Positions 1,307-31,300 of a stretch of DNA of 64,000 nucleotides are shown in pieces. The translations under genes were made by a program, and so were the position numbers. Below the pieces are notes generated by a model that saw only the letters and a program-made list of their open reading frames with translations, was not told the DNA's origin and searched no databases. The number at the start of each line of letters is the position of its first letter. Positions within the stretch are counted from its first letter, which is position 1. Origin of the DNA: Raillietiella orientalis (Eukaryota); NCBI GenBank assembly GCA_036172245.1, contig JAYWIR010000021.1, positions 2,046,001 through 2,110,000 of the forward strand. Direction: 5' to 3'.

Positions 1307-2879
1307 CTAAATAAGAGGACAAAAATGAATTACAGAGTCATCTAAAATAAATCCATCCCCAAAACCGTTCTCTACTGGCAAAAGAGTAGGCTGCTCCCTA
1401 CACATGGGGCAAAAAGTTGATCTAACTGTGGAGGAACGCATCCAAATTATGAGATTGCACCTAAATAAAAGAATGGATATATACACCTTATGACAACTAT
1501 AGCCACTGCCCCTATAGGATGACTATTGCATCTACACCTACCTATTGCCATCTGTAACAGGAAGGGCAGCATGCATATGTTGACCTCTATGGAATAAAGC
1601 CCATCCTAATTTATGGCTACAAACTATGTATTCTTCAAATGGGTTTCCTGGTAGATCACCAAAATATAATTCTCCTCCTTCAAAACCATCTTCAAGGCAT
1701 ATGTTTGCAGTAACCTAGCACAAAAATCTTGCAAAATATGCCTTTCAACCAACCAAGAAGTTACCTCTGCATTATCATAATGATAAGCAAGTTCAACATC
1801 TTTCTCCTGGGCATACTGAACAGTAAATGCTTTATGTGAATCCAAAGAGTTTCCAGTCCACTGAGGATAAAGTTGTTGAGAAATTGGTTGAAAGTAATTG
1901 CTCCGTAAACAGTTAAAAAATCCTTCATCAAACCCAAGTTCAGACAATAGAATCTATTGGAAACATTAAGCATAAAAAAACATGGCAACTCCTTACTGAC
2001 TCCATACTGATTCATCGAATTTGGTCTGCCTGAAGGTAAACCACTGTTTTCAAAGTTACTCAATTCTTCCAGAAAACTTTGACAAAAAGATGGCGTGAAT
2101 ACAGGAAAAGAATAGATCTCTCTCCCTAAACACTTGAAATCGAACGCTTTCATTGACTGCAAATCTATTTGTGGATTTTGCCGGCATATCTTGACAATAT
2201 TCAGAAACCTTTCATCTAAATATGATTCCTGAAAGGGAGAGGATTTGCAAACAATAAACTTGAATTGAATATGAGGGCACTACACAAAATAAACTCATGA
2301 TTATATAAATTAATTGAGAATATAAAACATTAGTGGAAACTTACCTCCAGGGTATAAATATCAGAATTCTTCTTTACGTATGCATTCTGTATTAACTTTC
2401 TTCTTCTATTGCCTTCACTCAATTCCAAACTCCTGTGCTCAATCTCTTTCTCAATCTAAATATGCCAATTTTTACATAATGCACTTTACAGAGACCATCA
2501 AAATTCAGTTGCAACAATGGCATTTCCATTCAAATTACAACACAATCAAGAGAACAAGACATACATACTTCTGGTATAAGATCCGTGGGATGCACCCTAT
2601 TCCAGTTCGGTACACCCTGAAACACAGAATGATACACTGACGGGGGAAATTTGCCTCTCGTTTTTAGGAAATGTTAACGAACCGTATCCTTCAACATAAA
2701 ATGGGCTGCCTAGCGTTCTATATCATTATGCTTCTTCAACGTACCTTTTGCCTTAGTAGCTGTTGAACATTCGAAAAATTTTTTATAAATTCATCTCTAC
2801 TTGAAAACGAAACATGAATATCATACTTCCTTAAGTATATATTTTTTGAAAAGTAGCACCTACAAATGCAGAACTTCAT
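1307..2879 (-). CDS. OGFOD2: 2-oxoglutarate/Fe(II)-dependent oxygenase domain-containing protein 2 (7 exons)
   Basis: Manually spliced GT-AG exons ~2879-2745, 2616-2569, 2455-2345, 2229-2001, 1953-1765, 1715-1541, 1460-1307. The product reads MKFCICRCYFSKNIY...IYSFPVFTPSFCQSFLEELSNFE...GRPNSMNQYG...LDSHKAF...YHYDNAEVT (HxD)...HRGQHMH...CNLIIWMRSS...FCPMC...GFGDGF, collinear with OGFOD2. Stop TAG at 1309-1307. Confidence 0.93.
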
Positions 2880-3299: not shown

Positions 3300-4660
3300 G
3301 ATGATGATACAATTTCATTACTTATGTGACTCACTTAAATTTCGATATTGTTTGCTTCCAGAGAACAAAGCGATGTATCTTTCCTCGATAGGAGCAGTCA
3401 GTTTCTTGCGATATATCGCACTTCAACTTCAGCGAATGCTTCAAGTTGTGTGGGCATCACTGAGCGAGAAGTGTTTCCCCCGGAGCAGGGTCAAGGGACA
3501 TTTTGGATTGTCAGTTCCTAAAGAAATTCCTGATGCGATGGCTTGCAATCCACGCGATGCATTCTCGCAGGTCCAAATTCTCTTCCCATTCTCGAAATAC
3601 AGAGCTGCATGCTGATGCGAAAGCAGCTGAGAACGCCACTTCCGTCCTATGGGCATTCCCATTGCATTAGTGGAGAGTAGCGGGAGAGGAACCATTTGAA
3701 GCCTTCTTCAGAAGGCACTTGATGCACGAAAAAGCGCGTGGGCAGGAAGAACTTCCCTCGCCAAAGCGCTGACCTTCCTCAGCGAGCACCTGAGCAGCAG
3801 CATCGCGGCGAAACGGGAAGTGAAGGCAACCATCTCCGGAAGAGAGAAAGGACTGGGAGAGTGGAAGACGGACCAGCTCACTGACGCTGCGACCCCGAAT
3901 ACACCACCCCATGGACTCTTGCGCTGGGGCGAGCTACTGGATGTTCCGTTGGAACACCTGAAGAGGCCCCCGATGCTCATGGACATCCGCACCCTCCCCT
4001 TGAAGTGGCAGGAGTCCGCGCTGCTGGTGCTGCACTGGGGTCTCCCATGCAACGCCCACCGTCATCACCGGACGCGGGGGGGGGGTACCCAGATGTGTCA
4101 GATGCGGGGAGAGTGAATCCCTCCCTCACTTGCCAGTGGAGTGTGTTGCCCTCCGGCCCCTCTGGGAACGCTTTGCCGCCACCCTGGGAACCCCCGGAGG
4201 CAACTCCAGGCACGCTTCGAAACCCCTCTTCGTTCGCGACGCCCTTCGGCCGGCGGTCCCCTGGCAGCCCTGTGCTGCCTAAGCGGGTCGTCGCTGCATG
4301 AAGCAAAGCAACAGGAGGACCCAGCGATAGGGATGCTATCCACTCGACCGTCCCATTCATCAGGATAGCGACGCGAGGACAGGACTATGCAGCAAGACCT
4401 TGCCGGCATCCTACAAGAGGATGAACAGGGCTGCCGCCAGCAGACAGTGATCCCTTCCCACACACCCCAAAGTGTGTTTATTTTTATTTTTTGTTTCTTT
4501 TGTTTGTCCCCTCCCCTCCGCTGCCGTGGTGGACCACGCCGGTCTGCGAACCGGTGGCCAGGCAGGTCTCCTTTAAATTGGGCATGGTTGGACCACTGGT
4601 CGAACCACAGTTCTCGTAACATGTTTATTTTTGAAATAAACGCCCCGGCTCACCCGGGTG
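3300..4660 (+). mobile_element. 5'-truncated Tx1/L1-like non-LTR retrotransposon (ORF2 C-terminus plus 3' UTR), copy A
   Basis: Frameshifted peptide KWQESALLVLHWGLPCNAHRHH followed by a Cx2C..H..C zinc-binding (zf-RVT-like) motif and LWERF, then a pyrimidine-rich UTR, AATAAA and a terminal hairpin. The 5' boundary is uncertain. Confidence 0.7.
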
Positions 4661-7631: not shown

Positions 7632-8220
7632 TTGAGTTTCTATTTGCAATGCACCGCTTTCCTCAGCCGGTTCACTTACGAAAGGCTATCAGCAGCGGCG
7701 GAGGATGCCGCAGGGTGGGAGGTGGCTCCAACCAACAAAACTGCGCCTGGGTCCGATTCCAACCTGAGACCGGACCTGATGTTGCAGAAGGCGAATCGCA
7801 TACTCATCTTCGAAGTCCCCTGTCCCTTCGAAAACAAGGAAGAGGTGCTCAGAAAAAGAAAAGAAGTACCAGGAGATTCGCCTTGCTGTTCACGAGAAGA
7901 GGTCTTTCGATGCACTTGGATCGTGGGACCCTCGGGACGGTGGAGTCTTTCGTGAGTTGGGTATCCCGAAGCGGAACGCAGATAAGGAAGAGGCCTCCTG
8001 CATCCTGCACAGGAGGGACGTCTACTGGATGCACCGTCTAGGACATCCTGCAGATGGCGCCACGAATCTTCAACAGGAAGCAACAGCAGAAGAAGGATAG
8101 TCTCGCTTTTAACCCCCATGAAGATTGCCCATTCTCTTAGCCCAAGAGAAAAAGACACGGCAGATCCATCCAGTTTATTTATTTATTTTGTATATTTGTA
8201 ATGTACTTGTCGAAATAAAA
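7632..8220 (+). mobile_element. 3' fragment of RLE-type non-LTR retrotransposon (Utopia-like)
   Basis: NKTAPGSDSNLRPDLMLQKANRILIFEVPCPFEN...WIVGPSGRW is a degenerate PD-(D/E)xK restriction-like endonuclease of the NeSL/Utopia type. An AT-rich 3' UTR ending AATAAAA abuts U2 sequence. Confidence 0.82.
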
Positions 8221-8376
8221 TCCGTTCTTATCATCTTGACATCTGGCACGCCACTCATCTGGTGGCGAGTACATAAAACTACTTTTTGGAAGTGTACTTG
8301 GGGATGCTTGGAGCTGGCTCCTCTCTTGTCGCTGGTCGACCCGGTAATGCAGTACCTCCGGGATCGCCCGCTCCCC
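8221..8376 (+). pseudogene. U2: U2 snRNA pseudogene, 3' portion (from nt ~39)
   Basis: TCCGTTCTTATCATCTTGACATCTGGCACG aligns to U2 TCTGTTCTTATCAGTTTAATATCTGATACG (23/30 by eye). It continues with stem IIb CGCCAC/GTGGCG, a degenerate Sm site ACTTTTTGG, stem III tip GGAGCTGGCTCC and stem-loop IV TCGACCCGGTAATGCAGTACCTCCGGGA. The 5' 38 nt are absent and stem IIa is disrupted. Confidence 0.9.
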
Positions 8377-9149
8377 TTTACAAGCCACTCCCACCATACC
8401 TCTTGTATTCAAACTGTAATGTACACCACATCGTACTTGGAATTCAAAGTTGAAGCCATCCATTTGTGGATGCCGAGTCCGCATCATAGAGGACTCAGCG
8501 ATCGGGATGCACCTCCGAGACCTTGAGAAAGCGGACCTTGGAGATGTTCCTGTTGCATGCCAGAATTCGGTGCCGCCCCCTTCCTTAGGTAGCGTGCTCC
8601 CGATTCGTACCCGACGAGACAAGCCTTGCCTCCAGGGAGAACGTCCCGGATTCGCGATTCCCGGCTAGCAAAAAAGAATGGAGACCGGCACTACAAGACT
8701 CTGGGGTCTGCCCCCCCCCCTCCCGAGGGAGCATGCTGAAGAGGCCACTCTTGAGCTCCCCCTCACCTCCAAGCCCTCTGTCAAGAAAGACTCTTCTTCT
8801 CTAGGGAGAGCGTCCAGGGAGGTTCCCGGAGTATCCCATTACTCCATCTGACGACGTGTCGCGCTGCAGCTGAGGATGCCTGGGACAGAAGGCAGCTCCT
8901 GAAAACCGCAGACCTACCGACGAAGCAAGAGAGCGGGTGGGGTGGAGGGATCAAAGCCGAGATGAGATCCCATGGAGACGAAGCCGAGATCGTCCAGCAG
9001 AAGGAAACGAGGGTGGATGCTTTGGCAGGGGCATCAGAGGCGCGGAAGAGCGTGGCATGGGGGCTGCCGAGAAACGCATTCTGGTTGCCGGGAGAGGAAG
9101 AAAAGCGCGTCGAACCGCGTGTTGCCATGGAAGGAAAGGTTCCTCTCCT

Positions 9150-10145: not shown

Positions 10146-10249
10146 AAATAAATGCATGCATTTATTATATATATTTATATATATCTAAACATATATGAAA
10201 TGAATACAAAAATATCGAATTATAAACGTATGCATTTATTGTTTATAAT

Positions 10250-10287
<38 letters not shown>

Positions 10288-10770
10288 ACAATATATTAAT
10301 ACGTATTATTATTCGTTATTTTGATATGATCTGTGTTAGTAAATATTAATAAATGTGTACGTTAGAATAAATTTGTACATTAAGCTGTTTATAAATATAC
10401 ATATTAATCTACATAATAAATACATATATTTGTTGTTTATAATATACACCAATTTGTATGTAAATATATGCAACAAACATATTATTAATTATATTGGTAA
10501 TATGTATATTAATAAATGTCAATAACTATAAAGGTTAAAATAATACTATATATTAATAAACATGACATTAATTTATTAATAAACATGATTAGCGATTTAT
10601 ATCTTAATAAACATGCATGTTAAAATAAATTTGCATCTGCATCTCTACAAGAATGTATATATTTATATACATAAATAAATACTCGTATTTATTTTGATAA
10701 TCTTCCCGATATATATCATTAAGATCATTAAAAAGAAAGTACATATATAATAGACGTACACTTTCTTTTC
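10146..10770. repeat. Very AT-rich low-complexity island with (TA)n and three TAATAAACATG copies
   Basis: Abrupt composition shift between GC-rich flanks; (TA)n at ~10253-10283; TAATAAACATG at ~10554, ~10577 and ~10604. Confidence 0.8.
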
Positions 10771-11736: not shown

Positions 11737-12503
11737 ACCCGGGTGCGCCGGGGCGTTTATTTCAAAAATAAACATGTTACGAGAACTGTGGTTCGACCAG
11801 TGGTCCAACCATGCCCAATTTAAAGGAGACCTGCCTGGCCACCGGTTCGCAGACCGGCGTGGTCCACCACGGCAGCGGAGGGGAGGGGACAAACAAAAGA
11901 AACAAAAAATAAAAATAAACACACTTTGGGGTGTGTGGGAAGGGATCACTGTCTGCTGGCGGCAGCCCTGTTCATCCTCTTGTAGGATGCCGGCAAGGTC
12001 TTGCTGCATAGTCCTGTCCTCGCGTCGCTATCCTGATGAATGGGACGGTCGAGTGGATAGCATCCCTATCGCTGGGTCCTCCTGTTGCTTTGCTTCATGC
12101 AGCGACGACCCGCTTAGGCAGCACAGGGCTGCCAGGGGACCGCCGGCCGAAGGGCGTCGCGAACGAAGAGGGGTTTCGAAGCGTGCCTGGAGTTGCCTCC
12201 GGGGGTTCCCAGGGTGGCGGCAAAGCGTTCCCAGAGGGGCCGGAGGGCAACACACTCCACTGGCAAGTGAGGGAGGGATTCACTCTCCCCGCATCTGACA
12301 CAGTTTGGGTAACCCCTTCCCCGCGTCCGGTGATGACGGTGGGCGTTGCATGGGAGACCCCAGTGCAGCACCAGCAGCGCGGACTCCTGCCACTTCAAGG
12401 GGAGGGTGCGGATGTCCATGAGCATCGGGGGCCTCTTCAGGTGTTCCAACGGAACATCCAGTAGCTCTCCCCAGCGCAAGAGTCCATGGGGTGGTGTATT
12501 CGG
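11737..12503 (-). mobile_element. Tx1/L1-like 3' fragment, copy B (near-identical inverted copy of 3895-4659)
   Basis: The reverse complement matches 3895-4659 apart from a few differences. It retains an in-frame YPNCVRCGESESLPHLPVEC zinc motif. Confidence 0.85.
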
Positions 12504-13975
12504 AAAAGCGCTGGATCGAAGGAGGCTTGTGTTTCTCCAAACCCAAGCACCATGGCAACGTCCACGCGCTCAAGAAACTACCAGCTCCTCTGCATCCAAT
12601 ACAACACTACGCGCCTCACGCGAACCCGTTGCTCTTCACCCTCTAATGTCGGCATTCGGAGACCACCGGGAGAACGCGGTCTCAGGTAGGGTAGGGTAGT
12701 GCGCAACTGGGAGGGTTTGCGAAGCACGGGAAAGGGAGGGACTTTGTGGATCCAACCTCAGGACCACGGCTGAGTAAGCGACAGGTCGATGTATCAGAGA
12801 TCGTGAAAGGGGAGACCCTTAAACATATGGACCCAGAGAGTGCCAAAGCATCTGCTGAGCGCCTCCTCACGTCCCGACGCGTTAGCAGGAGCGCCGATAG
12901 TCCAGGAAGACGGACGCAGATCAACGGCTCGAGCGAGCGAGTCTGCCATCCACGCCTGCTTTCAGGTTCGCTCGAAAGCCGCTGCAGGAGATCGTGTCCA
13001 ACCCACGTTGTCTAAGGTGGGCTTTGTCCACCCCCTTGTCCCTGTGCTGCCCTCCTTGAAAGATACAAAGTACAGCGACCTTCCGGCAAGGTGAGAGGTG
13101 TCCTGCTGCTTCGAAGGCAGGAAGAAACTTCTGTGCGCTCACGAACGCTGCGACACCGGGTGTCCCTCCTAAAGGACTTGTACGCTGGGGCGGGCTGCTC
13201 GCGATCCCTCTGGAGGAGGTGAAGTGGCCTCCAGCGTGCTGAAAGACTGGGTACACCTCCCTCCAATGGCAGGAGTTTGCGTTGCTGGTGCTGCATCGGG
13301 AAACCCCGTGCAAGGCACGCCTTCACCACTGGACACGGGGGAGGATGGGTGCCGAGTGGGACAGGCGCAGGGAGAAGGAGACGCGCCTCTTGCTGGACTG
13401 CACTGCCCTCTGTCACCTTTGGGATCGCTTCTCGACGACCCTAGGAACCCCGGCCGTCGGCCCCAGGAACATTTGCAAACGCCTCTTCGTGCGTGTCACA
13501 TTGCCGCCAGCCGTGTCCCTTGCAGCGCCCTGCCGTCTTCGCGGGATCGTGGCGGTGTGGAAGGCCAGAAGAAGAGGCCTGAATGGAAGGGACGCTATCC
13601 ACTGGGCGACAATCTTCTTGAAGGCCGCCTGGATATGGCCCACCTGGACGAAATACGGACAGAGCTTGCCTGCATCCTGAACAGGATGCTGAGGACGCCT
13701 CCTAGCGAAGTATGGTCCCATCCCTGGTTCCCACTCCAATGACACTTTTCCTCCCATTTTTCTCTTTTCGTTTCTTTCTTTCTTTCTTTTTTCCGGTGTT
13801 CCCTTCCCGGTCGCTGAGGAAACGGACCTCCCCGGTCTACGTACCGGTCACGGCAAGTCCCGAGCACGTGGTGAAACCAAGTGTTTCATCACTCTTGAAC
13901 ATTTTCACTGAACTCTTATTACTATTTTGTTTAATAATAAATGCCCCCCGGCAAAACCGTGTGGAAAGCCTCCCG
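12504..13975 (+). mobile_element. Older diverged Tx1/L1-like relative (ORF2 C-terminus plus 3' UTR), copy C
   Basis: WQEFALLVLHRETPCKARLHH...LLLDCTALCHLWDRF...GIVAVWKARR is clearly homologous to copies A and B. It ends AATAAATGCCCCCCGGCAAAACCGTGTGG. Confidence 0.7.
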
Positions 13976-14399: not shown

Positions 14400-17110
14400 G
14401 CCCGTTCGGGGAGAGGACGAAAGACTGGACCGGAGCTCAGAGAACAGTCACACGACCCCATTAGCGGGGATTCCCCACCAATGGGGAACACCCACGAAAC
14501 GCAGGTGCTATGGTACAAAGGCCAGATGCAAGGATGGATGGCTCACAGGGCCCGCGAACTCTGGCAAAACCGGGGTCCTTGTTGGACGAAGGGCAGCACT
14601 CAAACTCCGGAGGACCACAGCTGCGGGGAACGCGACGTGGACGAGCTTCGAACAACCCCACCCTGAACCAACCTGCCATCGTGAACCGTCCCGTGCAGAT
14701 CCTGCTGGACTTCCAGCACTGCCTCCCGATGTTTCATTGTGGATGGGCCCTGTGCGGCGCGAGAATTCGATACCGGACCGGGTACCCTCAGTGGCGGACG
14801 TTGTCCAGTGTCGCGGGAGCAGAGAGGATGACCATGTTTTGCGCCTGAGAAACACTTGTTAGAGGTTGGAAAGTGATCAGGCAGGCGATATTGCAGTTAA
14901 TCGCCCAATCCAAGGTAGAGATCCTTCGGGGGCCCTTCGAAGGAGAAGAAACCGTCCCCTTGTAAGTTGAGGGTAGTCCTGGCATTATTCATCCGCAGCA
15001 TCCTCACCAGCACAAAGCTGCGGAGGGCAGAGCAGGGCATAGCGAAAGGTGCCTTGATGGGCCTGTTCGAAGGGAACACGAAATGCGAGGCTGTGGTAGA
15101 GTCCCAGCGTGGACCATCCGCTACACCCTCCAGAAAATTCAAGAAGCGGACACTTCCCTTAGTGCAAGACGTTTCCAAATACGGTGTTTGAAGTCCCCGG
15201 ACCCCCACCCCTTTCCCTGACAAACATGCGTCCTACGAGAGCGATTTGGCTCTTGTCCTGTGATGCGAGAACGGCAGTGCGAAACCCCTTCCTCGTTGCC
15301 TCGGCAACAGAGAATTTTCATCTCGTTCGTTTCGTCGGATTAATGAATCCAGAGGGAGTCGGACTGGGGAAAACCCCAACAGTGAGGACGGCGTAACAAC
15401 AACATACGTGGGGACGGCAAAGTGGTGGCAACTGCTGCTGCAGATCCTATGAACTGCGCTAAAAACCATAGCACACACAGCCGGAAGCAACCGTGTTGTC
15501 TGCATTCAGCCATCCTTCTTTCATGGTCGGCCTCCTTTCATGGAGAGTTGTGTCAAAGCATCGGGTGGCATCTATACCGGCCATTGCTCCAGCATCTGCG
15601 TGACCTTCTCATCCCGGGTCGCCAGCCCATTCATTTAAACCAGATAAACGTTCTCACATTTAGAGTTCTTACATTCAATTGGATCGATATATGCCAGCCT
15701 GGAACCAAAGGACTTCTCTGGGAGCGGAGCCAGGGAAGTGTGGAGGGAGAGGGAGGAGGGACGATAAATAAATGGAGAACGGGGTGGACCGGACCTCAGC
15801 AGTAAACATGATTTCTGAGGGCCTACGTCGAGCAGGGGATTCCACCAGGAATGACAGGGAAATCCCAGCAGGATTGGCGGGCACCGTCCAGGTGAGGCGC
15901 GTGCAGACGGCACGTGCCGGCCTTCGGCAGGCAGGCGCGGTTGACGAGGCTCGCGTGTCCCGTGTGCAAGCGGTTAGCCTGTTGCACCGGATGTGGCTGG
16001 GACCATACTGGAGCCCACCCTCGCTACCACCTCATGAGCACCCAGAAAAGGCAGCTTCCCGCTGGAGGAGGTCCAGATTACGGCATGGTTGGAGGAGAAG
16101 TGGTAAACGCAGCTTAGACAGCAGTGAGCCGTCCGGTCTCATCCTCTTTGGTTCATCTGGACCCAGTGGATCTCGCGCACGCACGTGCTGCCGTGAAAGC
16201 TGGCACACGTGCGGCGGCACTGTGGCACCACGTGACTGAATCGTGCGCCTCGCCTCCTCGTCTTGTTGGCACAATCGGAGGCTTCAGGAGCTCACGTGAT
16301 TTCGTGGTGCCGATCGCGGAATGCAAGCCAAGACCTTCTGTACTGATTCAACTCGTATCCGGTCTTTTGAGCAAGATATGAGCCACGTAGGAATCGATGC
16401 ATCACGTGATACCTGCATGCCCGAGGATACTGTGCTGCCGAGCGAAAACCTGTTGGCCAAATCGACAACGGCACTGGAAGAGCGACCTCTTCGGAGATGA
16501 TCTCTTTCCTCTTCAGTTAAAGGGAAGTCGTGGCTTCTCCCCAGGTGACCAGGTAAGTGTGTAGAGACCAAAGCGGCCTCCGAGAGCACCACCTGACGAC
16601 GGCTCCCTGCATTTCAAGCGATGCACAAAGCTGCAGAGCCGCCATCTTCAAGGTATTCTCGAAGTGATCCGATTCTCCAGCAGAAAACGAAAGAACAGGT
16701 CACGCCGGTTGACTGGGGCTTGGGAACACACACCCTGGTTAGGGTTTCAAGACAGACTCGTCGCTTTCGACCTTTGTCCCTCTTCAGGAACGAAAATTCA
16801 TGCTCTGCTTGAGCGTTGATGCGGCACCAGTTTCCGACAGAAGGATCTCGATTGTACCACGGATGGCATCCAGTCTTTCTCTGATGTACACGAATAGAGG
16901 CCTCGATACGTGGAGTCCCTTTCCGGGCACCTGGCGGTTCTGGGTGACATCTAGCTTAAGGGATTCCTTGTATTTGTTCTTTTACCATAATATGGCTGCA
17001 GGTAACACCTCTACGCAGACCGAGGTGTTGTCGTGGTGCTCGTGGACGTGGTGCAGTCGAGTATGGATGCAATTGATGTTCAGACAACCTACAACACTGG
17101 TGACGTGGCG
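14400..17110 (+). pseudogene. Degenerate non-LTR ORF2 fragments (post-RT region, Cys motif, RT N-terminal piece)
   Basis: IRQAILQLI...PL*VEGSPGII (GGLG-like region, ~14880-14990), ACPVCKR (~15950) and RRFRPLSLFRNE (RPISLL motif, ~16760-16795). Probably more than one element. Confidence 0.45.
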
Positions 17111-19100: not shown

Positions 19101-22100
19101 ACACATTCCGAGCGTGACCTGTTTTTTTATTTCCTCCAAAGCGGTCTTCCCCTGATGGCCATCACTTGGCGTGACCTGAATCTTCCGTTTTCTGCTTGAT
19201 GATCGGATCATTTCGGGAACACCTTGCATATGGCGGCTCTCTCTGCAGCTCTGAGTATCCCTTGAAATTCAGGGAGCCGTCGTCAGGTGGTGCTCTTAGA
19301 GGCCGCTTCGGTTGCTACAGGCTTAACTGGTCACCTGTGGCGGAGCCATCATCCAAGGTAAACAAACCTTTCTATTGGCTCGCAGGTTGGCGGCTCTAAT
19401 TCCCTAAGTTCTGCACGCCTGCTGTACCAAACAAATCCACTTCGTCTGTGCAAAGAACCACGCGTCTTCCGCCCACCAGAGTTGATCTATCACGAGATCG
19501 GGATTGGCGTGGTCCGCAAAGCAATAGGCCACGACCAAGGGTGGATGAGATTCACCAACCATGCCGCTTTCAGTTTGTTGGCATGCGTTTCCACTCACTT
19601 AAAATAGTGAATTTGCGAAATTTCAAAATAATCACTGAAGATTGCGCACCTACCATCTCGAGTGATGGAAGCATCCAGAACCCTCACCAGTGAGGACGAG
19701 ACTAGCAAATTAGCTCTATTACCAAAAGAATCGATGGACCCGTGGTTTCCGATCGGTATCCAGGCAACCCAGGAGACCCAAGGAAGCTTGGGTCTCCTGA
19801 CCCACCCCCTCCCCCACCCCCTAAAAAAAAAAAAAGAGGGATTCCCATGCAATGCTAACCAGAGGCGTGCGCAATGTGATTTTTAGGCTGCAACTTCGAG
19901 GAATTCTCCATTGCAGTGCACATCCGGCATTGTCACCTTTGCTGGAATCGAAATTTCGAAAACGCTGCCTTTATAGAATGTATCGAGACGGGTGGTCGAA
20001 ATAGAAGGGGAAAAAATGATAATTGTTCCGGATAATTGAAAAAAGGAAACCAAATTGCTGGACAGTAACGTGAATTTCTTGCAATCGAATGAACAAATTT
20101 AGGAACATTGCAAAAGCGAAAATAATGATAGCGTGAAGTACATGATGACGATGAAACTTCACGATTGCTCTTTCCCCTATTCTCTTGGCCTTTCATCTTA
20201 AGAGTTCGTCGGTGATGTTTTTTTTCCTCCAAGTCTCGCTGCTGCAGAAACCACGAGTGCGAAGCTCGTTCCCGTTCCAGGAAGTCTTTCGAGATCGAGT
20301 CATCCTGTTTTCAGGTGTTTTTCAAGGGACATCACGGCATGAGGAGGCTTCAGGAGCTTCCAAGTTCTCCCCAAGAGGTTGATTTGCCCACGGTGCTTTT
20401 CAAACACAGCAGCACACTCTGACCTCCGTTCCCTTCTCGATTTCGCGCAAAATATCTAAATTTTTATTTGAATGGTTAATGGATTCCTCTTATTTTTTCC
20501 CATCCTCGACGAGGTTGGAAGACGTTTCTTTTATCGAAATGACCGAAAACTTAAAATGTTGACTGCATGAAGAGTTGCTTATGCCAAAGATGCACCATCC
20601 AAGATGCACTGCATAATGAAGCATTTCCACTTCCGGAATTGCAAGCAAACCGACCTTGAAACCACCGGAAAAGAATTGCACGGTCGAATCGACGCAGCTC
20701 AGTGCAAGAGAATCAGCAAAGTGACTGTTCCAACTGACCTGGAAAGGATAACTGTCTCCCTGTGAGGAAGGATACACGAATCGTAACTAAGGGGCATCGC
20801 AACCGCCGAACATCGAAAGAGCTGCGGGATGTCGCTCCATCTCATCTTCTCCAAAGGTTTAAGCATCCCACGAAATGCCATTCAGCCGTGGACAACTTCT
20901 CCGTGAGAACGACAACAGCTGAAATGGTAACAAACATCGAATTTTACCTCGATGAGCGAGTTACCCTTCCAGCCCTAAAAGGGAGATGCTGATGTTATCG
21001 TGATGAGTTTCTTCCTCTGCAATGAACTTGATGCGATCGTGATCTAAGGACGGGAATAGCTGAAAACTTGCCGAATCGGAAAGTTTCCCTTCTTCCTGTT
21101 CTTCTTCAATTCTGTCGCGTCTTAGAAAAAGGCTTACTCACCCGCTTCGTGGTGGATTGTGATCCGAAAGCGTCACGGCAAAAGATTACCAGCAGTACAC
21201 CCACGGTGCGCCTAGATAGTTCCTCCTCAAATATAGTAAAGGAAATGGCGTCCACTAAGCATGGTATCGAGGGGAAGACAGAATGGATCGACCTGCAAAC
21301 TTAACGCAGAGTGCAATCCTCTCCAAGAAGTCATCCAAGGAAACAGCAGCAGCATCTTCCTCAAAGATCGCGAACTGTCAAAAGACTCGCCTCCGGTGTG
21401 CGAATACGTGAAGGAAGGATGCACGGCCAGCCTTCCGGAAACTTCACGCAACAGCAAAGGGACACAGACATCTCAACAGCCGCTGGGGGCTCCCTCTCGA
21501 AGACGTCAGAGGAATGGCCTGATTCATCGACACGCGTCGCGCTCCATTTCACCTCATGGGGAGACTGAGAAACCAAAAGGTCGCGCGACTGGGCACCCCT
21601 GCTCCGTCGAAATGAACCTCAGACCTAAAGATACATTTGGTTCATCGATGCTGATGGTGGAGCGAGCAAACAGCCTCAGCCAACCTCCGCCTCGCAGCAG
21701 CGAATGGCTCAGTTGTGCGGCCAAGAATGACGTTTCAGCACACATCGAGACGAAAAGACTTCCGTTGAATCGGACTGAACGAGGCTTCCGTGGAACACAC
21801 CATTCCCGGAAATGCAGTGGCACGCGTTCGGTTCACGGAAACCGGTCCTGCCTGGTGTCCTCGATGCGGTCTGCAGGATAGGCGTACAAGAAGTGGAGCC
21901 AGGAACCGACGCTACTGCTCATGCGTAGGAATCAACGCTTCTGACGACGCACGCGGGAGATTGGGTCTTCTCTTTCTGGCTGTCTTACCCGCGGACCATG
22001 TCGGATTGCAATATGCAAGATGGAAGGAAATGAACAGCTGCCGGTCCAATGTTACAGAGCACACCAGCAAACAGGCATGAACGGAATATTTTTTAGTGTA

Positions 22101-25100
22101 CGCCGGCTGATGAAATGAAAGGCGTCGGTTAAAAGACAGGTTTGATTGCCGGGGAAACAACAACCTCCGGTTTCCTAGAAAGGGTCAGGACACAGTCAGA
22201 AGTGAACGGGACCAGCGAATATGTCTGGAAGATCCTGTAACCAGTCCCGTTCTCGAGGCAGGAGGAGATCGACTTGGGTAAACGGAGCTTCGGCACAGCT
22301 GCTCTTCAGAGACCTTAGACCACTATGAAACTGGGGTTCGACCAATGACTGGATCATCCTGCCGAAAATACGTGGTCTCTGAAATATCGGGAGGAAGCAG
22401 ACACCCTCCTCTTAGAGGGGTGTCCCTCCGGAGAGAACGAGGAAGGAGATTCTCTTCGGGGTTCCCCTCCGGAGACAACCAGGGTAGGAGGTGCGATCCC
22501 CCCCCCAAGCGTGAGAGGAACGGACTCAGAACCCTTCCTGGATTCATAGGGCGGACCCCCATTCCGGGGTGCCCCCTATCCTGAAGAATTACACTGAAGA
22601 ATTACACGTCCCCCTGAGGGTTGCCGCAGGCGGAATGACGTGGAAGCAAAACAGTGTTTAAAGAGCCACGTGCGCCGCGAGGAACGCGACCGGTTCTTGA
22701 GGTACTTAGCAAACCAAAAAAAAGAAAACCCGAAAAAAAAAAAAGAAGCTGGAAGGAAAAAAACGACGAAGACAGAAGAAAAAGGACCCAAACAGAAAGG
22801 AGCAAGCGAGGGAAGGGCGCAGCAAGTGAAATGGCAGCATCAGCGTGCTTTTCTGAATTCGAAATTCAGACGCAACAAGTTCCTCCACTGCTGTGAGCCA
22901 CTCGATGAAGAGGAAACCTCCTGGGAACGAACTCGAAAAAGGAAGAAAATCCGTGCCAACAAAGATGAGTCCGTTGGAAGTGAACGGGATAAGGCGTGGC
23001 AGGATGTGAAGTGATCCAATACCCAGGACCTCTCTACTGAGAAAATCACTCTGGGATGAAACCTGGCAGGAGCTCATTCCGAACTCGAAATAAGTGGTCA
23101 TATACCGCATCACCTATTTTGGAAGGGAGAAGATTCACTAGGGAACACCTACGTGGTCCCAACACGAACAGAGTACACGGAAGGCTCACAGAATGATAGA
23201 ACGGATCTACAACGAGATAGAGGCCTACTGAAGAGAGCTCTTGGGGTGAGGAAGGAAGAAAGATAAGATTCAAGGACCAGGGAAACCCCACCACAAGACC
23301 ATAGGGAAAATGGAGCCGCAAGAAGGATGCATTCATCATCAAGAAGTGATAGTGAACACCCATATGTGAAATCAGCAACCACTGGTAGGCATGGAAGACC
23401 TGGACACGCTGCAGACCTCCTCTATAACTGGAAGGGATTTCAGTACGGTTCGGTACAGGATAGATGACCGTGTTTGCGCCTTGCTCAGATCTCGAAAGAA
23501 CACGGAACTTCAAGCCATTTCAAAAAATGCAGAAACTAAAAGAACAGATGCGGCTGGGACTTGGATACACGGAACCGTCTCTGTGAGCAGCTGGATCACC
23601 ATCAACTGAATCCGGAGAACTCTCATCCGGCTGCAGGACGGCATGACCCGGTGTATGCATTATTTGGCTCAATCCCTAACCACACGAAGAGAGGTGCGGA
23701 AACCACACATAGCGGGAGACAGACGAGGACGGATTGCACATGTCACCCTGCTGATGAGCCGAAAAGACCACGAGACAGTGGAGTATGGAGGGGGAGTTCC
23801 AGTTGAAGAAGCGCATAGGGAAAAAGATCCAGAGGCTGCGAAAGAAAAGCTGCAGCAAAAGCAGACGACGTGGACCGGGGTAGAGAACCCCGAGGAATGC
23901 CGCAGATCGCAGCCGCCGTCTCCTGAGCCATCAAACAACAAAACAAACAACACCAGGGAACAACTGACCAAAGCCTGCAACGCTTGCTCCGAAGCTGGAA
24001 CAGTAACGCACATACCAAGGGCATCGGCTCGTGGGTGTTCTCACTAGGTTACTAGGTTACCAGCTCGAGAAAAGCACTCAAAAAAAGTAAAAATAAAAAA
24101 ACCGATGCACACCAACTAACAGTAAGGCTGATCAAATAGGAATACCCAGAGCCTTGGAGAAAGCTAGTGCACAAAGCCAGTGCAGTTTTGCCTCCCGAAT
24201 CCGGTCCAGCGGCATCTGAAGTGGCAAACAGATGCAGAACTCTCAAGGAAATAAACGGCCCGACCCCATAGGCAGAAATGCATCGACAGAAATGCATCAC
24301 TCAGCGCCTCAGCGGTCAGGAACAGCTCATCCGACGTGTGAAACCTCTGTGATGCCAAGGATAATCCACGTAGGGAAATCCCAAGCTACAGCTTCGTGGA
24401 CCCAAATCAACTCTCAGACTCATAATGAGATTAAGAAATGATGAAAGACAGGCGGAGGATTCAATCTTTTGGGACCACATTCGACGTGCAGTGAAGCACG
24501 GTTGCTCCTATCTGACTGGTCGTTCAGATGGGAGCAACCAGGTTCGTTATCCTGTGCGCAGGGAAAATCGAATGAGAGTGGCAGGCAGGATTCTGGAATC
24601 CCCTGTTTACAACGGATCTTGTCCACGACTGATATACCGATCGTAATTACATTCCACCGGCTCACTGCCTCAAAACTGCTGTAGCCTCCTGACAATATAC
24701 AGTAGTTCATCCACCTATCGCTGTATGGGATTTGTCACTTAATTTTCTGAGCACACTCGGCTGGACCAGATGTATCTTCCCGATTAAGATCCGCAACAAC
24801 AGAACTTCCATATGACAAAAATCTGTTGGATGAGCGTCCGCCTCCTTGTTTCAAAGTCATCGATTCCTTCATCTGATCGGAGTGTGGTATATCTGTCCAT
24901 GCTGTCTGCTTCGTACACCGCGTGCCAATCATAGTTTTCCGTGAAGAAAGGAAGACTGGAGAAACCACCACTCCTCCATTTCTGCTAGAAGAGCACGATG
25001 ACTGTCACATCCGTCTTCGTTCCATACGTGCATAAGAAGCCGCACCGTGTCCCGAGTAGTTTTGTGTTTCCATAGAGTGCAAGGAGCCTTCGGAAACGTC

Positions 25101-26729
25101 TCCTGGTTTCAAACAAGCAAACAGTTCCCGGAATCCATCGAAACTGAGCGTGTCCTTCATCCTGTCTGGAGAATCAGGACGACCCGTTTCCCTCTAAGCC
25201 CTGGGTATCTGCGAGCATCTATCTGATCAAAGAAAAGCTCAGGCGCGCCGGGACAAATGCCAAAATCACCTCCTGCCTCACAAACTCCATTTTTCATTAG
25301 AATCTCACCCTTTCCCTCCCGCTGATCTCATCTTCAGCGAGTGGATTTCATGCTGCTCCGGAAGAATTCGACTGCCTCTATTCTCTGCGAGCACCCTACA
25401 GCACAGCCAAGCCCACACTCGCGTGGATGGCGACGACCCTTCCAGCCCATTCTAGAAATGCAAATCACACGTTTGCCGCACCCGACGGAAGTCGAGGGAT
25501 TCCGCACATTCTACAGCTCGAGAAGACTTTCGAGCAATCCCAGTCGAAGCGTTTTCGGATGGACAGTTGGCGTGGAGGTGTCTGCTGCAGTCATCGGCGA
25601 TCGGGAAACAAGAAGTGGGCAAGGAAGATTGGCACCAAAGCTGAAGAAATAATTGAGGACTTGATGGGACTTGATCGCTGTACGGCCCACTTTTCAGAAG
25701 AATACTCCGAGAGTGAAAAGGAAAATTTGCGGTCAGCGTGTTGCAAGCCTTTGCATTCTTCGGCAAGATGATTGCATGCATTACCACGGACTTCTCATGC
25801 AGACAGTGGGAAGTTCTTCGACGTCCGAGACAACCATCTCGTGGGTTCCATGCTCGTGTGCACAGCAACGAATGTGCAATTTATGATCATTATAAATAAT
25901 TTCCTCTACATGCACTCCGAGGTTTATTTGAAAAAAAAACAAAAAATGTCAAAAAGAAAAAAAGAAAAAACCGAAACAGATGAATCGCTAATTTACAAAT
26001 GCGACCAAAGCTGCGCCAAGGGACCGTGTCCGCAACACTCAATACCAAGTGGCGATATTTTTAGCAAACTGCCATTCCTCAGCATCTCCTCTCGTCTTTT
26101 CTCAGCTGAAGCTCGTATATCTTGTAAGTAACAGCTGCATGCAACCCTGCGCTCAGCAGTGCCAAATGGATTTGTTCCGAACCTGGTGCAATTCATTTTT
26201 TCTTTTTTTTTTTCTTCTTTCACCTACTATTTGCCTATTGAGCGTCACTCCGTGTAAATTATCAACTTCCTCCCAGCAGCCTCCACTGGATAACGCTTGC
26301 CGAAGAAATTGTCTTCGGTGTGACCATTTCTCCTGCATGTATCTTCTTCCACAGCACCAACGTTCAATCGGAATGAGTTCGGATGGCCTTTTCGGGGATC
26401 GTCCTGTTTCATAGGAGAAAATAAAACTCCCGAAATGTGTTCGTGGTCCATAACTAGCCTTCTTCTAGATGAATGGAAAAAAAAAAAAAAAAAAAAAACA
26501 CTGTGGCTTTTAACCCTCCCACACACCACGAAAGAAACTAGCCTCTAACGCATTTCGAACACATCTTCAAGATCCTCGGACCACCGTTTCAGGAAAAAAA
26601 AAATTCGGACTTTCTGTTTGGCAGAGTGCACTCAACAGGCTCTCTTCCTCATTTTCAAGTTCTGTTTGGTTGCAGGCTTGCCTTGAAAGACCGTGTGGAT
26701 CCCAGAGTGTGATGGTGGTACGATAGAAT

Positions 26730-27200
26730 ATGGAAACCATCAGGGGAGGCATCACGGGACGAGTACCACATGGGTGAACGTGGAGAAATGAGGAATCGTG
26801 AAGAGAGCGTAGCGAAAGCCCTCCGGGCTCCACAGGCTCGGTCCCTATTGAGTGGAGAAGACGCTCGCTCGCTCCAGAGGCGCTCATATGAGCGCACAGC
26901 ATCCAAGAGCCACCGTCTTCGCCCCGGAAGAGGAAGCCGTGATCGCAGCGTTCCGTAGGCGCACTCTGCCACCGCTGGACGACGACAACCACCTCTACCC
27001 TCTGCGAAATCCACCCCCACGCTTGGCCCTTCCGAGTGCACCCCGTCGTTCACAAAGGCACAGAAAGAGTCAGCAGAGTGCCAGCAGCCGAAAGAGAAGC
27101 AGAGGCGAGAAAGAAGAAATGCCCTACGGGCTACTTCCAATGTGGGGACCGCAAGAGTCAGAACGGAAGAGTCAAAATTAGCCGTCGACGGAAACGTCCA
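26730..27200 (+). pseudogene. Degenerate IS481-family (bacterial-type) transposase, N-terminal half
   Basis: Across frames: GRHHGTSTT, RNREES, IEWRRRS, HPRATVFAPEEEAVIAAFRRRTLPPLDD..LYPL, SQRH, VSRVP...KKKCPTGYF. These are collinear with the alphaproteobacterial IS481 pattern as I recall it: LHGSATTT..SQES..KWKKR..PRSTVLS.EEEA.IVAFRRHTLLPLDDCLYAL..LQRHGISRLP..KKFK.YPIGYFH. Confidence 0.75.
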
Positions 27201-27369
27201 GGTCCACCCCCACGTTAAGCCGCAAAGGACCCCTACAAAACCCAAGGAAAGCTGGGCCTTCACGTAATTGGATTAGGAATTTCACCCTATAAAATCCACC
27301 CTATTTAGGCGGGGCGCGGTGTACAGGTACAGCGGGATCGGTTCAGCATCCCGAAATATCTTAGAAACA

Positions 27370-28470
27370 GATACATACGTGTATTATATGTATTTGCTGT
27401 TACTAATTTACATATAATATTTATTATTGATATACTAAATAATATCTTTATCACGCATATATTGATATACATATGACAAGTATATTATTTAGTATACTAA
27501 TACATATAATACACGCATGTATTTGTTTTTAAGATATTTCGAGATTATATATATATATATTTGTATATGTAGAGTAGCATGTATTCCAAAAATGAAAATA
27601 ACTGCTTGTTCTTTTTATCTATATTAATATAAGAAACACGAGTATTTATTTTAAATATTAACTTGTATATTAATATTCTATGTATGCATAAATTAATATA
27701 TAGGTTAATATACTTTATTAAAATAATGCATATGTGTTTATTATAGATGCACATATAATTAATAATATGTTTATTATGTATGATTATATATAGATAAATA
27801 ATTTTACAAAAGTCATGGAAAATAAATGTGTTTATTTACATATTAATACTATATTGATTAATATACAAATTCATTTTAACATACATATTTATTAATGCAA
27901 TTAACAACATTGTTCGTGTATGTTGCTGATGCATATCGTGACGATTATAAAAAATAAACACATAGTGATAAAGATAATTGTATATGATAAACAAATTTAT
28001 GCATGTTCACTTTTACGTACATTAATGCGTATACATAAATATCGAATTTTGAAAATAAAAAATAATGATGAAAACGAAAAATAGTGGGGAAAAACAGAAA
28101 CGAGCAAAAAAGAAATTTGGCATTCCATTTTCCTTCCACTTTCAACACTCTACAAACGAAACTCCCTCAGGGAATGGAGAATTCTATCCGCGGGATTCTG
28201 ACCGGCGAATGTGTATGCGCCCACGACTCCATATTTACATATGCACTCCACGTGTATTTATTGCATGCATGAATATGTGTGGATGCATGTAATAAAAAGT
28301 ATGCATATCCCTGTTCTTTATCATCTTTGATATATGTTAACACATATTGTCGATTACATCAATAAATCTGCATGATCATCTACACATGTATCTTAATATG
28401 AACAATAAGCACGTACATTTATTTCCATCACCTTCGTAGTGTACAATGTACTGACATGTGCAACAAGCAC
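27370..28470. repeat. Second AT-rich low-complexity island
   Basis: Abrupt AT-rich block rich in TATA, TGCA, TACA and TGTA words, grading into GC-rich sequence on the right. Confidence 0.75.
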
Positions 28471-29949
28471 ATGCATTTGTTTTCGAGCTCTTTCGGGGTT
28501 TCCGGGATTCGACGGGCGCCGACAATTTTCCGGCCTGGAGCCACGCAGGTCAGCGTTTCAGCACGCTTTGGATAGCTGGCGAAGAAAATTGAGCGTCGTT
28601 TGACAAAGGTCATCCACCTTTCGGCCGATGGCCGAGTGGAACTCTTGGGGAAAGCTCTGCATCAAGTCGAGAGGTCTTCGGCATCGGTCCCGTCAACCAC
28701 CCGGAGGATCACCTCTCTGGCTCTGCGGTGGCTCGCAAAGACCTCGCAGTGGTCTCGCGCCTTGCGAGTGCACATGTCATCGGTGGACGAATGTCAATCC
28801 GACAGCATATGTCGTTGGTGACTTCGACGGTGCCACCGTCTCCAGCAGCCACAGCCAGCCGTGGTGAGGAGCGCTGGGGCCCGCCGCTAGATCCGTGCGT
28901 TTTACCTACGTGGTCAGGAGTTCGATGTACCACGAAAGCAGCCACGCGGGCGGACGTATCTTTTACCACATTCGCGTACGAGCTGCGTTCGCTTTCGGAG
29001 CAATTCCGAGCTTGTGTTCCCACGGCCCTGTTCGTACACGCTTCGCGTTCTCACGGACACGCGTACACACTTTTCATGTCTTTGAGGAAAGTGGGCAAAC
29101 GAACTTGCTGAAGCCCCACGGACTGGGATGGCATTCTTTCCGGAGCATCCTTTGAAGAAAAAATGGATTCACTTATGAGTTCGCCTCCTCACACTTGATT
29201 GAACACTCGGGTGCACTGATGAGGGTTCACAAAAGTGCCTGGACCTCCTGTAAAAGACCCGGTCATTGCAGCGGATTGAGCGGGGTCGCCGTAGTGTTTT
29301 CCAAACAAAACACCAAGCAAGTTCACACGTAGCTGCTCGCTTCTGCTTTAGGGGTACTGCAGGAGCCGGACAAGTGTCGAAGTAGTAGCCAAAGACATGG
29401 ATAGGCTGAGCGCGTGTTTTGCTGGAGTGGTTGAGGCTTCGTCTGCTGAACAGTGCAGCCCACGACACGGCGGCCAAAAGACCAAATATGAATATCAAAT
29501 ATGACCAAATATCTTCAAAGCTTTCCGTTCGCCTTTTCCCACTCTGTACTCGGCACTCTCACTCGAACACCCCTAATTATGTATTATGGGACAAAGGCCC
29601 TGAATATGCTCGCCCAAATAGTTAGAGGAGTGTTGTTACGGCCTCTTGGAAGTATGGGTCAAGTGCTGGACCCGTAGGTACAATCACGAGCTCCACTGCA
29701 CCTCTATTTGTGCTCTTTCTCGCGGTATTCTTCTTGCATGAGAATATAATTCGGCAGAGATGGGCAGTAACCACAACTGTCCTCATCGGCATCGCTGTTG
29801 TTCCCGAAGGTCATGGTAGTGATTTTGACGCCAAAACCCCTCATTCTAACCATCGCCATTCTATGTTCTGCCATGTGGGATGTCATCAATGAAAAAAAAA
29901 AAAAGGAAAAAAAGACTTACTGAAAAAGGATCAGCAATAGGTATGTTCT

Positions 29950-31300
29950 TTCACACCGCTTTTATAGCAACCGTTTTTTGCAGCCCGCTTTTCCCGCCCT
30001 GCTGGCAAGTGCCTTCCTTGGTGGAGTTGATGTCATTGCTCATTCCTGGAACAGATGCGTACTTAACTCCTTTTTTTATATGGAAGGCTTTCGATCTTAC
30101 CGATGCTACCACTCTTGCACCGCGTAGGTGCTCTGAATTACTTGTCCCCATAAAAGCAAGGTACTTGGCATTTGACGAATTCCGTGCTACCGACACATTC
30201 GACACGCATCCCTTCAACTCCGTTTATAGTCTCCCCAGGGAACAAGGAAAATTCTTCACCCGAAGGCAAGCCAACTTGAAGATCATTATACAGCGCCCTC
30301 AGCATCCCCCTATTACTGTTCACCCGCAATAAAGCTGCTAACCCGGACCTTCGTAGTGCGTCTTTGCTTAACAGGACTTTGTCTTTTAGAGATTACGGAA
30401 GCTGCTGACGGCATTAAACTTGAGAATTCACGCAATCTGTTAAATTATATTATTTTTATTTTTTCCCTCCCTCACTCGCAAGCAGCGCACGTATTCTGCG
30501 GTTGCTTCAGCAGACTCTGCAGCACGTGTAAAGAACTTTCCCAGCCTTCCACCTCTCGGAAAACCTTTTGATCATATGGAAACGATCGTCAAAACCTACA
30601 TCTTTTAGAAGCTTCGATATCGGCTTCGGAAAAATAGATGAACAAGCTCTGTGCTACTATTCATAATAGTACGGATGTTGCAACTATTCTTAAGGAAGCC
30701 ATCTTATTTCGAGGTAACTGATTCACGCTGGGAGGCAAGCCGTACACTGTACAGTACTTGTTGAGAATCTTAGTGAAATTGGGGGTGCTTCTGGAGAAGA
30801 TTGTGTACTTAGGAAACGCAGTGGCTTGTGTACGCAGGAACTCATTCGGGGGTGCCCAGGACGGCAAAAATCAGGGATATGAAGTAAAACGCAGGTGGGC
30901 CTTTTAGGGAGTCAAAACCCTATTCCAAGTGGAATTCATCAATCGAAAACGAGGCCTGGGAATCATTCATGCTATTTTGATTAGACATCCTTGCTCTTCA
31001 ATAGATTGTGCAAATTTTGAAAAGATGGGTGAAAAGCGTCATCAAAACGCGAGAACGCCAAGTTGTCGAAAAGGTTTTATCCTTGCAGTGATGACTGATG
31101 GGAAGTTGAATGAGAGTAGCAAACGTAAAACATGGCGTATCAGATAGCACCAGCAAAATCGTCGACGGAGTATCCCTCAAAGCAATGCATTTCCACGTTG
31201 GCTTATTTGCAAATCGAATTGCCCGAATCTCTTGCTGGAACATTCTAGCGTCCTGCTCACTTTGCCACCTGATAGGCCGCTAGACAAAAATGGAGCTTTT
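29950..31300 (+). pseudogene. Degenerate non-LTR reverse transcriptase fragment
   Basis: YLAFDEFRATDTFDT (D...AFD region), EAADGIKLENSRNLLNY (pre-YADD region), NRKRGLGII (GGLG motif). Confidence 0.4.

Follow-up and report, generated by a model that had tools for sequence, protein, structure and literature searches.

A decayed, nearly complete IS481-type insertion sequence, likely acquired by horizontal transfer, on a contig of Raillietiella orientalis

This work describes what appears to be a dead, nearly complete ~1.0-kb bacterial insertion sequence (IS) of the IS481 family in the genome assembly of Raillietiella orientalis. The element lies in a stretch of 64,000 nucleotides (assembly GCA_036172245.1, contig JAYWIR010000021.1, positions 2,046,001 to 2,110,000 of the forward strand), referred to here as the window; all coordinates below count from its first letter. 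The explanation that we prefer, and that we consider likely, is that a single bacterial copy entered the germ line by horizontal transfer and underwent neutral decay, and that an AT-rich insertion split it at a later time; the element is probably present as a single copy. An initial annotation of the locus had interpreted it as an IS481-type transposase fossil in an animal chromosome, decayed like the transposable elements (TEs) around it and derived from an endosymbiont or, if multicopy with terminal inverted repeats, from an IS481 lineage that transposed in an animal genome. This interpretation is supported in part: the IS481 core and the animal contig stand, while the endosymbiont donor and the comparison with TEs found no support. 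The features discussed are collected in Table 1.

Table 1. Coordinates of the putative IS481 element, its parts, and other features of the window
Feature	Position	Strand	Basis or remark
OGFOD2-like frames	1627-2279	-	Pfam
U2 snRNA	8192-8377		61.6 bits
Putative IS481 element, whole	26693-28886	+	Split by ~1.1-kb AT-rich insertion
Left terminal inverted repeat (IRL), GTGTGGATCCCAGAGTGTGATGG	26693..26715	+	Aligns to bacterial IRLs
IS leader	26716..26756	+	DNA alignment with four bacterial copies
Decayed transposase, codons ~3-200 (HTH, linker, first part of rve core)	26741..27326	+	Frameshift-aware aligner, tblastn, hmmsearch, nhmmer
AT-rich insertion	27348..28510 (edges approximate)	.	GC 0.15-0.25; composition profile
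Decayed transposase, codons ~212-319	28536..28865	+	nhmmer, frameshift-aware alignment
Decayed right inverted repeat (IRR), ...GCTGGGGCCCGCCG	about 28866..28886	+	DNA alignment to 3' ends of three bacterial copies
CTAG	28887..28890	+	Directly after right end; flank/target motif of bacterial copies
EamA-like (drug/metabolite transporter) frame, 88 aa	29626-29889, core 29626-29808	+	Pfam E 5.9e-6, 27 bits versus cutoff of 28.2; atlas 0.95
SepSecS exons	about 60309-60626 and 60669-60973		Pfam
Mad-like bHLH exon	63414-63536		29/41 residues versus human MAD (own count), E 7.9e-12

The two peptides quoted in the initial annotation, ...HPRATVFAPEEEAVIAAFRRRTLPPLDDDNHLYPL... and ...VSRVPAAEREAEARKKKCPTGYF..., were both found in place, the former inside a stop-to-stop frame (26852-27181) and the latter inside the frame 26943-27218, both on the plus strand. 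Direct scans of four broken frames assigned a transposase family to none of them, either with Pfam (0/4) or with NCBIfam (0/4), and a tblastn search of plasmids with frame 26943-27218 alone gave no match. With the 109-aa frame as the query, tblastn against 7.3 Gb of plasmid sequence retrieved 350 records (best E 1e-4; 52 to 62% identity over 34 to 44 residues), and the annotated ones among these matches are designated “IS481 family transposase.” A word-indexed search for longer proteins homologous to the same frame found none. In a phmmer search of 1.84 billion representative proteins, 145 matches were obtained at E ≤ 1e-3, the best of them at 5.5e-7 and 55% identity; a cluster look-up of the top 10 protein matches attached a name to only one (“hypothetical protein”) and a taxonomy to none. 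In the opposite direction, tblastn searches of the window with full-length transposases from Microvirga and Croceicoccus plasmids gave an E value of 2e-9.

Protein comparisons were also made with our own frameshift-aware local aligner, which uses BLOSUM62 and a penalty of 10 per frameshift. The Phaeobacter transposase (319 aa) aligned through residues 3-200 to 26741-27326 with a score of 206, compared to 37, 43, and 39 for three shuffled-protein controls; 77 of 201 columns are identical, and the alignment contains 8 frameshifts and 1 stop. The Microvirga and Croceicoccus proteins scored 180 (residues 6-149) and 153 (residues 42-149), respectively, with shuffled controls at 34 to 46. No second copy was found by the aligner on either strand of the 64-kb window, where the next-best score was 60 versus 51 for a shuffled protein.

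Profiles built from 48 bacterial copies were then applied to the entire window. A DNA profile searched with nhmmer over both strands (128 kb) gave exactly two matches, which lie on the same (plus) strand and in profile order: profile positions 19-476 correspond to 26698-27139 (E 5e-24) and positions 722-979 to 28563-28793 (E 2.9e-6, 17.4 bits). The corresponding protein HMM, searched against all 1,950 open reading frames (ORFs) of the window, had a best E value of 5.4e-15. An IS481-type match far beyond chance is thereby confirmed, and what the initial annotation had called an IS481-type transposase is decayed bacterial IS481 sequence. Frameshift-aware comparison, which it had proposed as a check, and the searches of bacterial sequences gave significant IS481 matches, and the nearest sequences are all bacterial. 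The span originally assigned to the feature (26730..27200) does cover the homologous core, although the element itself extends well beyond it and contains the AT-rich insertion (Table 1).

Assignment to the IS481 family is made through the relatives. Proteins from Microvirga, Croceicoccus, and Phaeobacter score 281 to 288 bits on the NF033577 model (cutoff of 224) and carry HTH and rve domains, and the window matches the profile of the 48 NF033577-type copies. Members of the subgroup measure ~1.0 to 1.05 kb and contain one transposase gene; the two parts of the window element (26693-27347 and 28511-28886) add up to about 1.03 kb.

At the left end, the IRL has a counterpart in Croceicoccus, GATGTTTGATCCCAGACTTTGATGG, which pairs with the IRR of the Croceicoccus element, and a pattern search for the IRL over the whole window found one site where none was expected. 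The leader that follows contains a Shine-Dalgarno-like GGGGAGG (26743-26749) at the place where the aligned bacterial copies read GGAAGGA/GGAGGGA, and the former start codon (26754-26756) is ACG where the bacterial copies carry ATG. Noncoding parts of the bacterial element have been retained, among them the well-preserved IRL, the Shine-Dalgarno-like leader, and a stretch of 58 bp with 84.5% identity to the Phaeobacter and Leisingera copies. Within the left transposase segment, the codon for the first catalytic D is kept (GAC, 27187-27189) and the second catalytic D is lost. Near the end of the segment, CCCTATAAAATCCAC is identical to Croceicoccus at 15 of 15 nucleotides.

Beyond the AT-rich block, the frameshift-aware alignment resumes in order, with transposase residues 224-308 corresponding to 28579-28816. 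The window reads IERRLTKVIHLSADGRVELLGKAL here where the bacterial sequence is IEHRLTKPNHPWTNGQVERMNRTI, and GLAPCECTCHRWT where it is GLTPYEYICKTWT; the codon for the catalytic E is kept (GAA, 28639-28641) within IERRLTKVIHLSADGRVELLGKAL. The frame covering this part (28576-28818) was the second best of the 1,950 ORFs in hmmsearch, at an E value of only 0.22, and as a single tblastn query against plasmids it returned nothing relevant. The putative right half is thus assigned on the basis of a 17.4-bit profile match together with its position and order. A reading of the element as a 3'-truncated fragment ending at ~27335 was dropped when the in-order alignment, the DNA alignment, and the second nhmmer match (E 2.9e-6) showed a 3' part. 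An earlier result had been at noise level: tblastn was blank past the left part, and the C-terminal half scored 42 to 60 against 27300-31000 (33 to 48 when shuffled).

The IRR is more strongly altered. By our count, about 10 of 18 compared positions agree with the bacterial consensus CCGGGACTAAACAC; the ACA end of the repeat carries mutations, and a pattern search tolerating up to three mismatches missed it. Outside the element, CTAG directly follows the right end, and the left flank of the IRL reads GACC instead; no target duplication is visible at the two ends. AGACCG at the left side resembles AGATCCG at the right; this was considered as a target duplication and treated as chance.

A scan of one genome per prokaryote species gave at least 602 pattern matches and at least 572 confirmed relatives. 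The best 80 loci of these ≥572 relatives come mostly from Alphaproteobacteria (Methylobacterium, Rhizomicrobium, Methylocystis, Rhodobacterales, and others) and in few cases from other phyla; among them are one locus each from a louse Wolbachia, a Holosporaceae bin, and a Rhabdochlamydiaceae bin. The profile set was composed of those bacterial loci with an open frame of 290 to 400 aa (48 of 85). The bacterial subgroup is often broken itself, as only these 48 of the 85 loci gave such a frame. Our own script found an inverted-repeat pair in 26 of the 48 copies, delimiting elements of 1,002 to 1,053 bp with ends of the form (G/A)TGT...ACA(C/T). CTAG stands just outside both ends in 12 of these 26 copies; if copies with CTAG at one end are counted as well, the number rises to about 19 to 20 of 26 (own count). 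The association is strikingly regular. Judged by its sequence, the window copy appears to belong to this subgroup of ~1.0-kb elements, which have TGT...ACA ends, are flanked by CTAG, and are common in GC-rich Alphaproteobacteria. A search of 241 million metagenome records for relatives sharing the changed residues of the window copy produced 596 pattern matches, none of which was confirmed.

The motif series had initially been described as typical of alphaproteobacterial IS481 transposases, including those of endosymbionts, and the first part of this description agrees with the relatives recovered here: they are mostly GC-rich Alphaproteobacteria (best 80 of ≥572), with the louse Wolbachia copy among them. 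The proposal of an endosymbiont donor fared less well. The GC content of 26694-27335 is 0.567 (0.43 in the kilobase to the left and 0.25 in the kilobase to the right), near the bacterial median of 0.607 (68 loci), versus 0.37 for the Wolbachia copy; the Holosporaceae and Rhabdochlamydiaceae copies have values of 0.465 and 0.43, respectively. This composition is a weak argument that the donor was GC-rich and was not an AT-rich obligate endosymbiont. The locus also differs from what a Wolbachia-type nuclear insert would look like, both in GC content (0.567 versus 0.37) and in that no other bacterial match occurs in 23200-31100. A phylogeny, which the initial annotation had suggested as a check, was run but proved uninformative: in a quick IQ-TREE analysis of 49 rows (the window and the 48 bacterial copies; 230 columns), the window branch, 5.46 in length (median of all rows, 0.1), falls within no supported clade. 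For this reason, the tree cannot place the fragment and the donor cannot be named.

Decay of the element was measured at nucleotide sites common to ≥90% of the 48 bacterial copies within 188 aligned codons of the left part. At 80 of 218 such sites, the window departs from the shared base (42 transitions and 38 transversions). Here p is 0.367 and the Jukes-Cantor distance is 0.50, values that may be inflated by a divergent donor or deflated by an aligner that maximizes similarity; part of the divergence could be that of the donor rather than neutral decay. By the same measure, values for the bacterial copies reach 0.395 at most, with a median of 0.018. Taken with the frame breaks, this divergence shows long evolution without selection. 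An active member of the family would have an intact DDE triad and an open frame, whereas here the second D is missing, ACG stands in place of ATG, and the left part alone contains 8 frameshifts and 1 stop. Having lost its start codon and one catalytic residue, and with at least nine breaks in its frame, the element has no present function and is best read as the fossil of an IS481 member, i.e., an old pseudogene rather than a working element. Its age would be great: ~0.5 substitutions per site would correspond to tens to hundreds of millions of years at an assumed rate of 1e-9 to 1e-8 per site per year.

The AT-rich insertion that splits the element has at its start a palindrome of 198 bp (27348-27545). 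The two 47-nt arms of this palindrome show 91% complementarity, and its terminal 21-mer occurs twice, once per strand. The palindrome resembles a foldback or MITE-type element. The insertion is also similar to an AT-rich block elsewhere in the window (10169-10636; 70 to 73% identity over 120 to 155 bp, E down to 5e-12), a similarity that counts as weak evidence, since scores of this kind are inflated by AT-rich composition. All 26 bacterial copies in which both ends were identified measure at most 1,053 bp, so the insertion arose after the IS had left its bacterial host. Its nesting inside the IS, together with the similar block elsewhere in the window, supports residence of the element in the host.

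The surrounding sequence is eukaryotic and, judged from its genes, animal. The two SepSecS exons are separated by an intron of ~42 nt (60627-60668; GTACGT...CTAAT...CAG) and are contiguous in the Pfam profile (105-211 and 210-312). A SepSecS exon is at best 51% identical to its homologs (range of 36 to 51% over 80 relatives, with crustaceans, algae, and oomycetes mixed), which suggests that the host lineage is poorly represented or fast evolving; an atlas search with this exon returned generic PLP-enzyme clusters only. To our knowledge, the Mad/Mxd group, to which the bHLH exon at the right end of the window is similar, is confined to animals. With the intron-containing SepSecS gene (GT..AG) and the Mad-like exon, the earlier statement that the element shares its contig with intron-containing animal genes is upheld. 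The parallel statement that it has decayed like neighboring TEs found no footing: in Pfam searches, no transposon protein domain was detected in any of 337 window ORFs (251 ORFs of ≥90 aa from the whole window and 86 ORFs of 45 to 89 aa from 23-31 kb).

Repeats of other kinds do occur in the window. A 767-bp inverted repeat with 99.1% identity (3895-4659 and 11737-12503) encloses about 7 kb that includes the U2 snRNA and an AT-rich block (about 10150-10700), and diverged copies of it (67 to 68% identity) are located at 13137-13603. This repeat could have arisen by a recent inverted duplication, or its two arms could be long terminal repeats that bound a large mobile element. A shorter inverted repeat (16531-16706 and 19168-19348) measures 181 bp at 83% identity.

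How the element reached its present position can be considered from its ends and flanks. Under the preferred explanation, a bacterial IS481-family element would have entered the animal germ line by horizontal transfer long ago, the copy would have decayed neutrally, and the ~1.1-kb AT-rich host insertion would later have split it. The donor would be a free-living or host-associated GC-rich alphaproteobacterium that transferred DNA directly, and host end joining of a bacterial DNA fragment carrying the IS, rather than transposition, would account for the integration. Such host-repair integration is favored because the left flank is host-like, no target duplication is visible, and a bacterial right flank has no support; the left flank looks like host DNA because it is AT-richer right up to the IRL (GC of 0.39 to 0.45) and contains A10 and A22 runs. 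That bacterial-like composition ends at the IRL would, however, also be expected if the junctions were true transposon ends, as they would be if an IS481-like lineage had been active in animal genomes or if the element had jumped out of bacterial DNA by means of its own transposase. The copy is essentially full length with both inverted repeats, CTAG (the usual flank of the family) directly follows its right end, and eukaryotic IS481-like elements are described from parabasalids (PMC10045372). We nevertheless regard this reading as improbable: the 64-kb window holds no second copy, none of the 596 metagenome pattern matches was confirmed as sharing the changed residues, the left flank reads GACC with no visible target duplication, the leader still looks bacterial with its Shine-Dalgarno-like motif, and the nearest sequences are all bacterial. 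It is equally doubtful that a bacterial IS481 element transposed into the animal germ line by its own machinery or founded a short-lived family there.

On the right side, the flank has a GC content of 0.53 to 0.64 for about 250 bp, to about 29150, and the EamA-like frame follows 740 bp downstream of the IS. These features would fit an arrival of the IS inside a longer chromosomal or plasmid piece of bacterial DNA, the rest of which either decayed or is represented by the GC-rich flank and the EamA-like piece; the CTAG at the right end could then be a bacterial target copy, and the family is common on plasmids (the 350 records above). The EamA-like frame itself is undecided among a host exon, a pseudo-exon, and a bacterial remnant: its Pfam score lies just below the cutoff (Table 1), AG and GT flank it as they would a single exon (own reading), no longer homolog of it was found, and the interval that separates it from the IS contains no further membrane-protein-like frame. 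A bacterial island around the IS is not supported, as blastn of 23200-31100 against plasmids matched the IS piece only, 0 of 3 tblastn queries (the EamA-like frame and two frames from the right flank) found a match in plasmids, and Pfam detected no other domain in the ORFs of 23-31 kb (86 of 45 to 89 aa, in addition to those of ≥90 aa). With the left flank AT-richer and bearing long A runs, a longer bacterial piece is unlikely. Bacterial contamination or a chimeric assembly join, by comparison, is very unlikely on the sequence evidence. The IS of a live contaminant would be intact or nearly so, but here 37% of conserved sites have changed and the frame is broken at least nine times; the copy is interrupted by 1.1 kb of 15 to 25% GC, which is seen in none of the 26 bacterial copies whose ends are defined, and no bacterial gene lies beside it. 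The initial argument that decay speaks against contamination is therefore sound, given the 80 of 218 changed sites and the nested insertion.

Compared with bacterial IS481 elements (NF033577; the ~1.0-kb subgroup in Methylobacterium, Rhizobium, Phaeobacter, Croceicoccus, Acinetobacter, and others), the window copy has the same gene order of HTH, linker, and rve, a left inverted repeat starting with TGT, a Shine-Dalgarno-like leader, a length of ~1.0 kb without the insertion, and CTAG after the right end. Unlike them, it resides in what appears to be an animal chromosome, is dead, contains an AT-rich insertion, and lacks the left CTAG.

Bacterial IS transfers into eukaryotes are documented yet scarce. 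An IS5-like element of the bdelloid rotifer Adineta vaga reportedly goes back to Gladyshev and Arkhipova in 2009. It is cited as an animal case in PMC3673617, and a preprint from 2021 names only IS607 and this one IS5-like rotifer element as bacterial ISs in eukaryotes (10.1101/2021.09.26.461848). As cited in these two sources, the Adineta vaga element is, like the window copy, a bacterial IS that occurs once in its animal genome and shows no sign of having spread, the window copy being probably single; the window copy differs in belonging to another IS family and in being heavily decayed and interrupted. According to Gilbert and Cordaux (2013), when 430 eukaryote genomes were screened with all IS families, only IS607-like sequences were recovered, in Amoebozoa, fungi, and stramenopiles and, by that account, none in animals (PMC3673617). 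As described there, these cases also represent prokaryote-to-eukaryote IS transfer, consist mostly of fragments with stops and frameshifts, and draw support from eukaryotic flanks, whereas IS607 is of the serine-recombinase type without inverted repeats (PMC3673617).

The closest eukaryotic comparison by family is IS481EU (Kojima and Bao, 2023), an IS481-like superfamily that is described as restricted to parabasalids, as multicopy in Trichomonas and Histomonas, as producing target duplications of about 4, 15, or 25 bp, and as only distantly affiliated with particular prokaryotic IS481 members (PMC10045372). IS481EU and the window copy have in common an IS481-related DDE transposase and, as published, termini of the TNT...AYA type, which the left TGT of the window fits. 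Unlike IS481EU, with which the comparison is by published description only (PMC10045372), the window copy can be aligned as DNA with the members of a tight bacterial subgroup. A search of full-text literature found no report of IS481 in animal genomes among the papers covered.

A nearly complete IS481 copy with both ends in an animal chromosome would add a second IS family to the animal record. Should entry by its own transposase be true, it would constitute cross-kingdom transposition in a family whose eukaryotic representatives are so far those of parabasalids only. In methodological terms, a profile of many bacterial copies is shown to reach far into old pseudogenes. The value of the finding is historical rather than mechanistic, in that it would be a rare fossil of transfer and offers no new mechanism. 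As a decayed copy, it is a datable marker and, if the locus is common to related species, would time a transfer from a bacterium to an animal.
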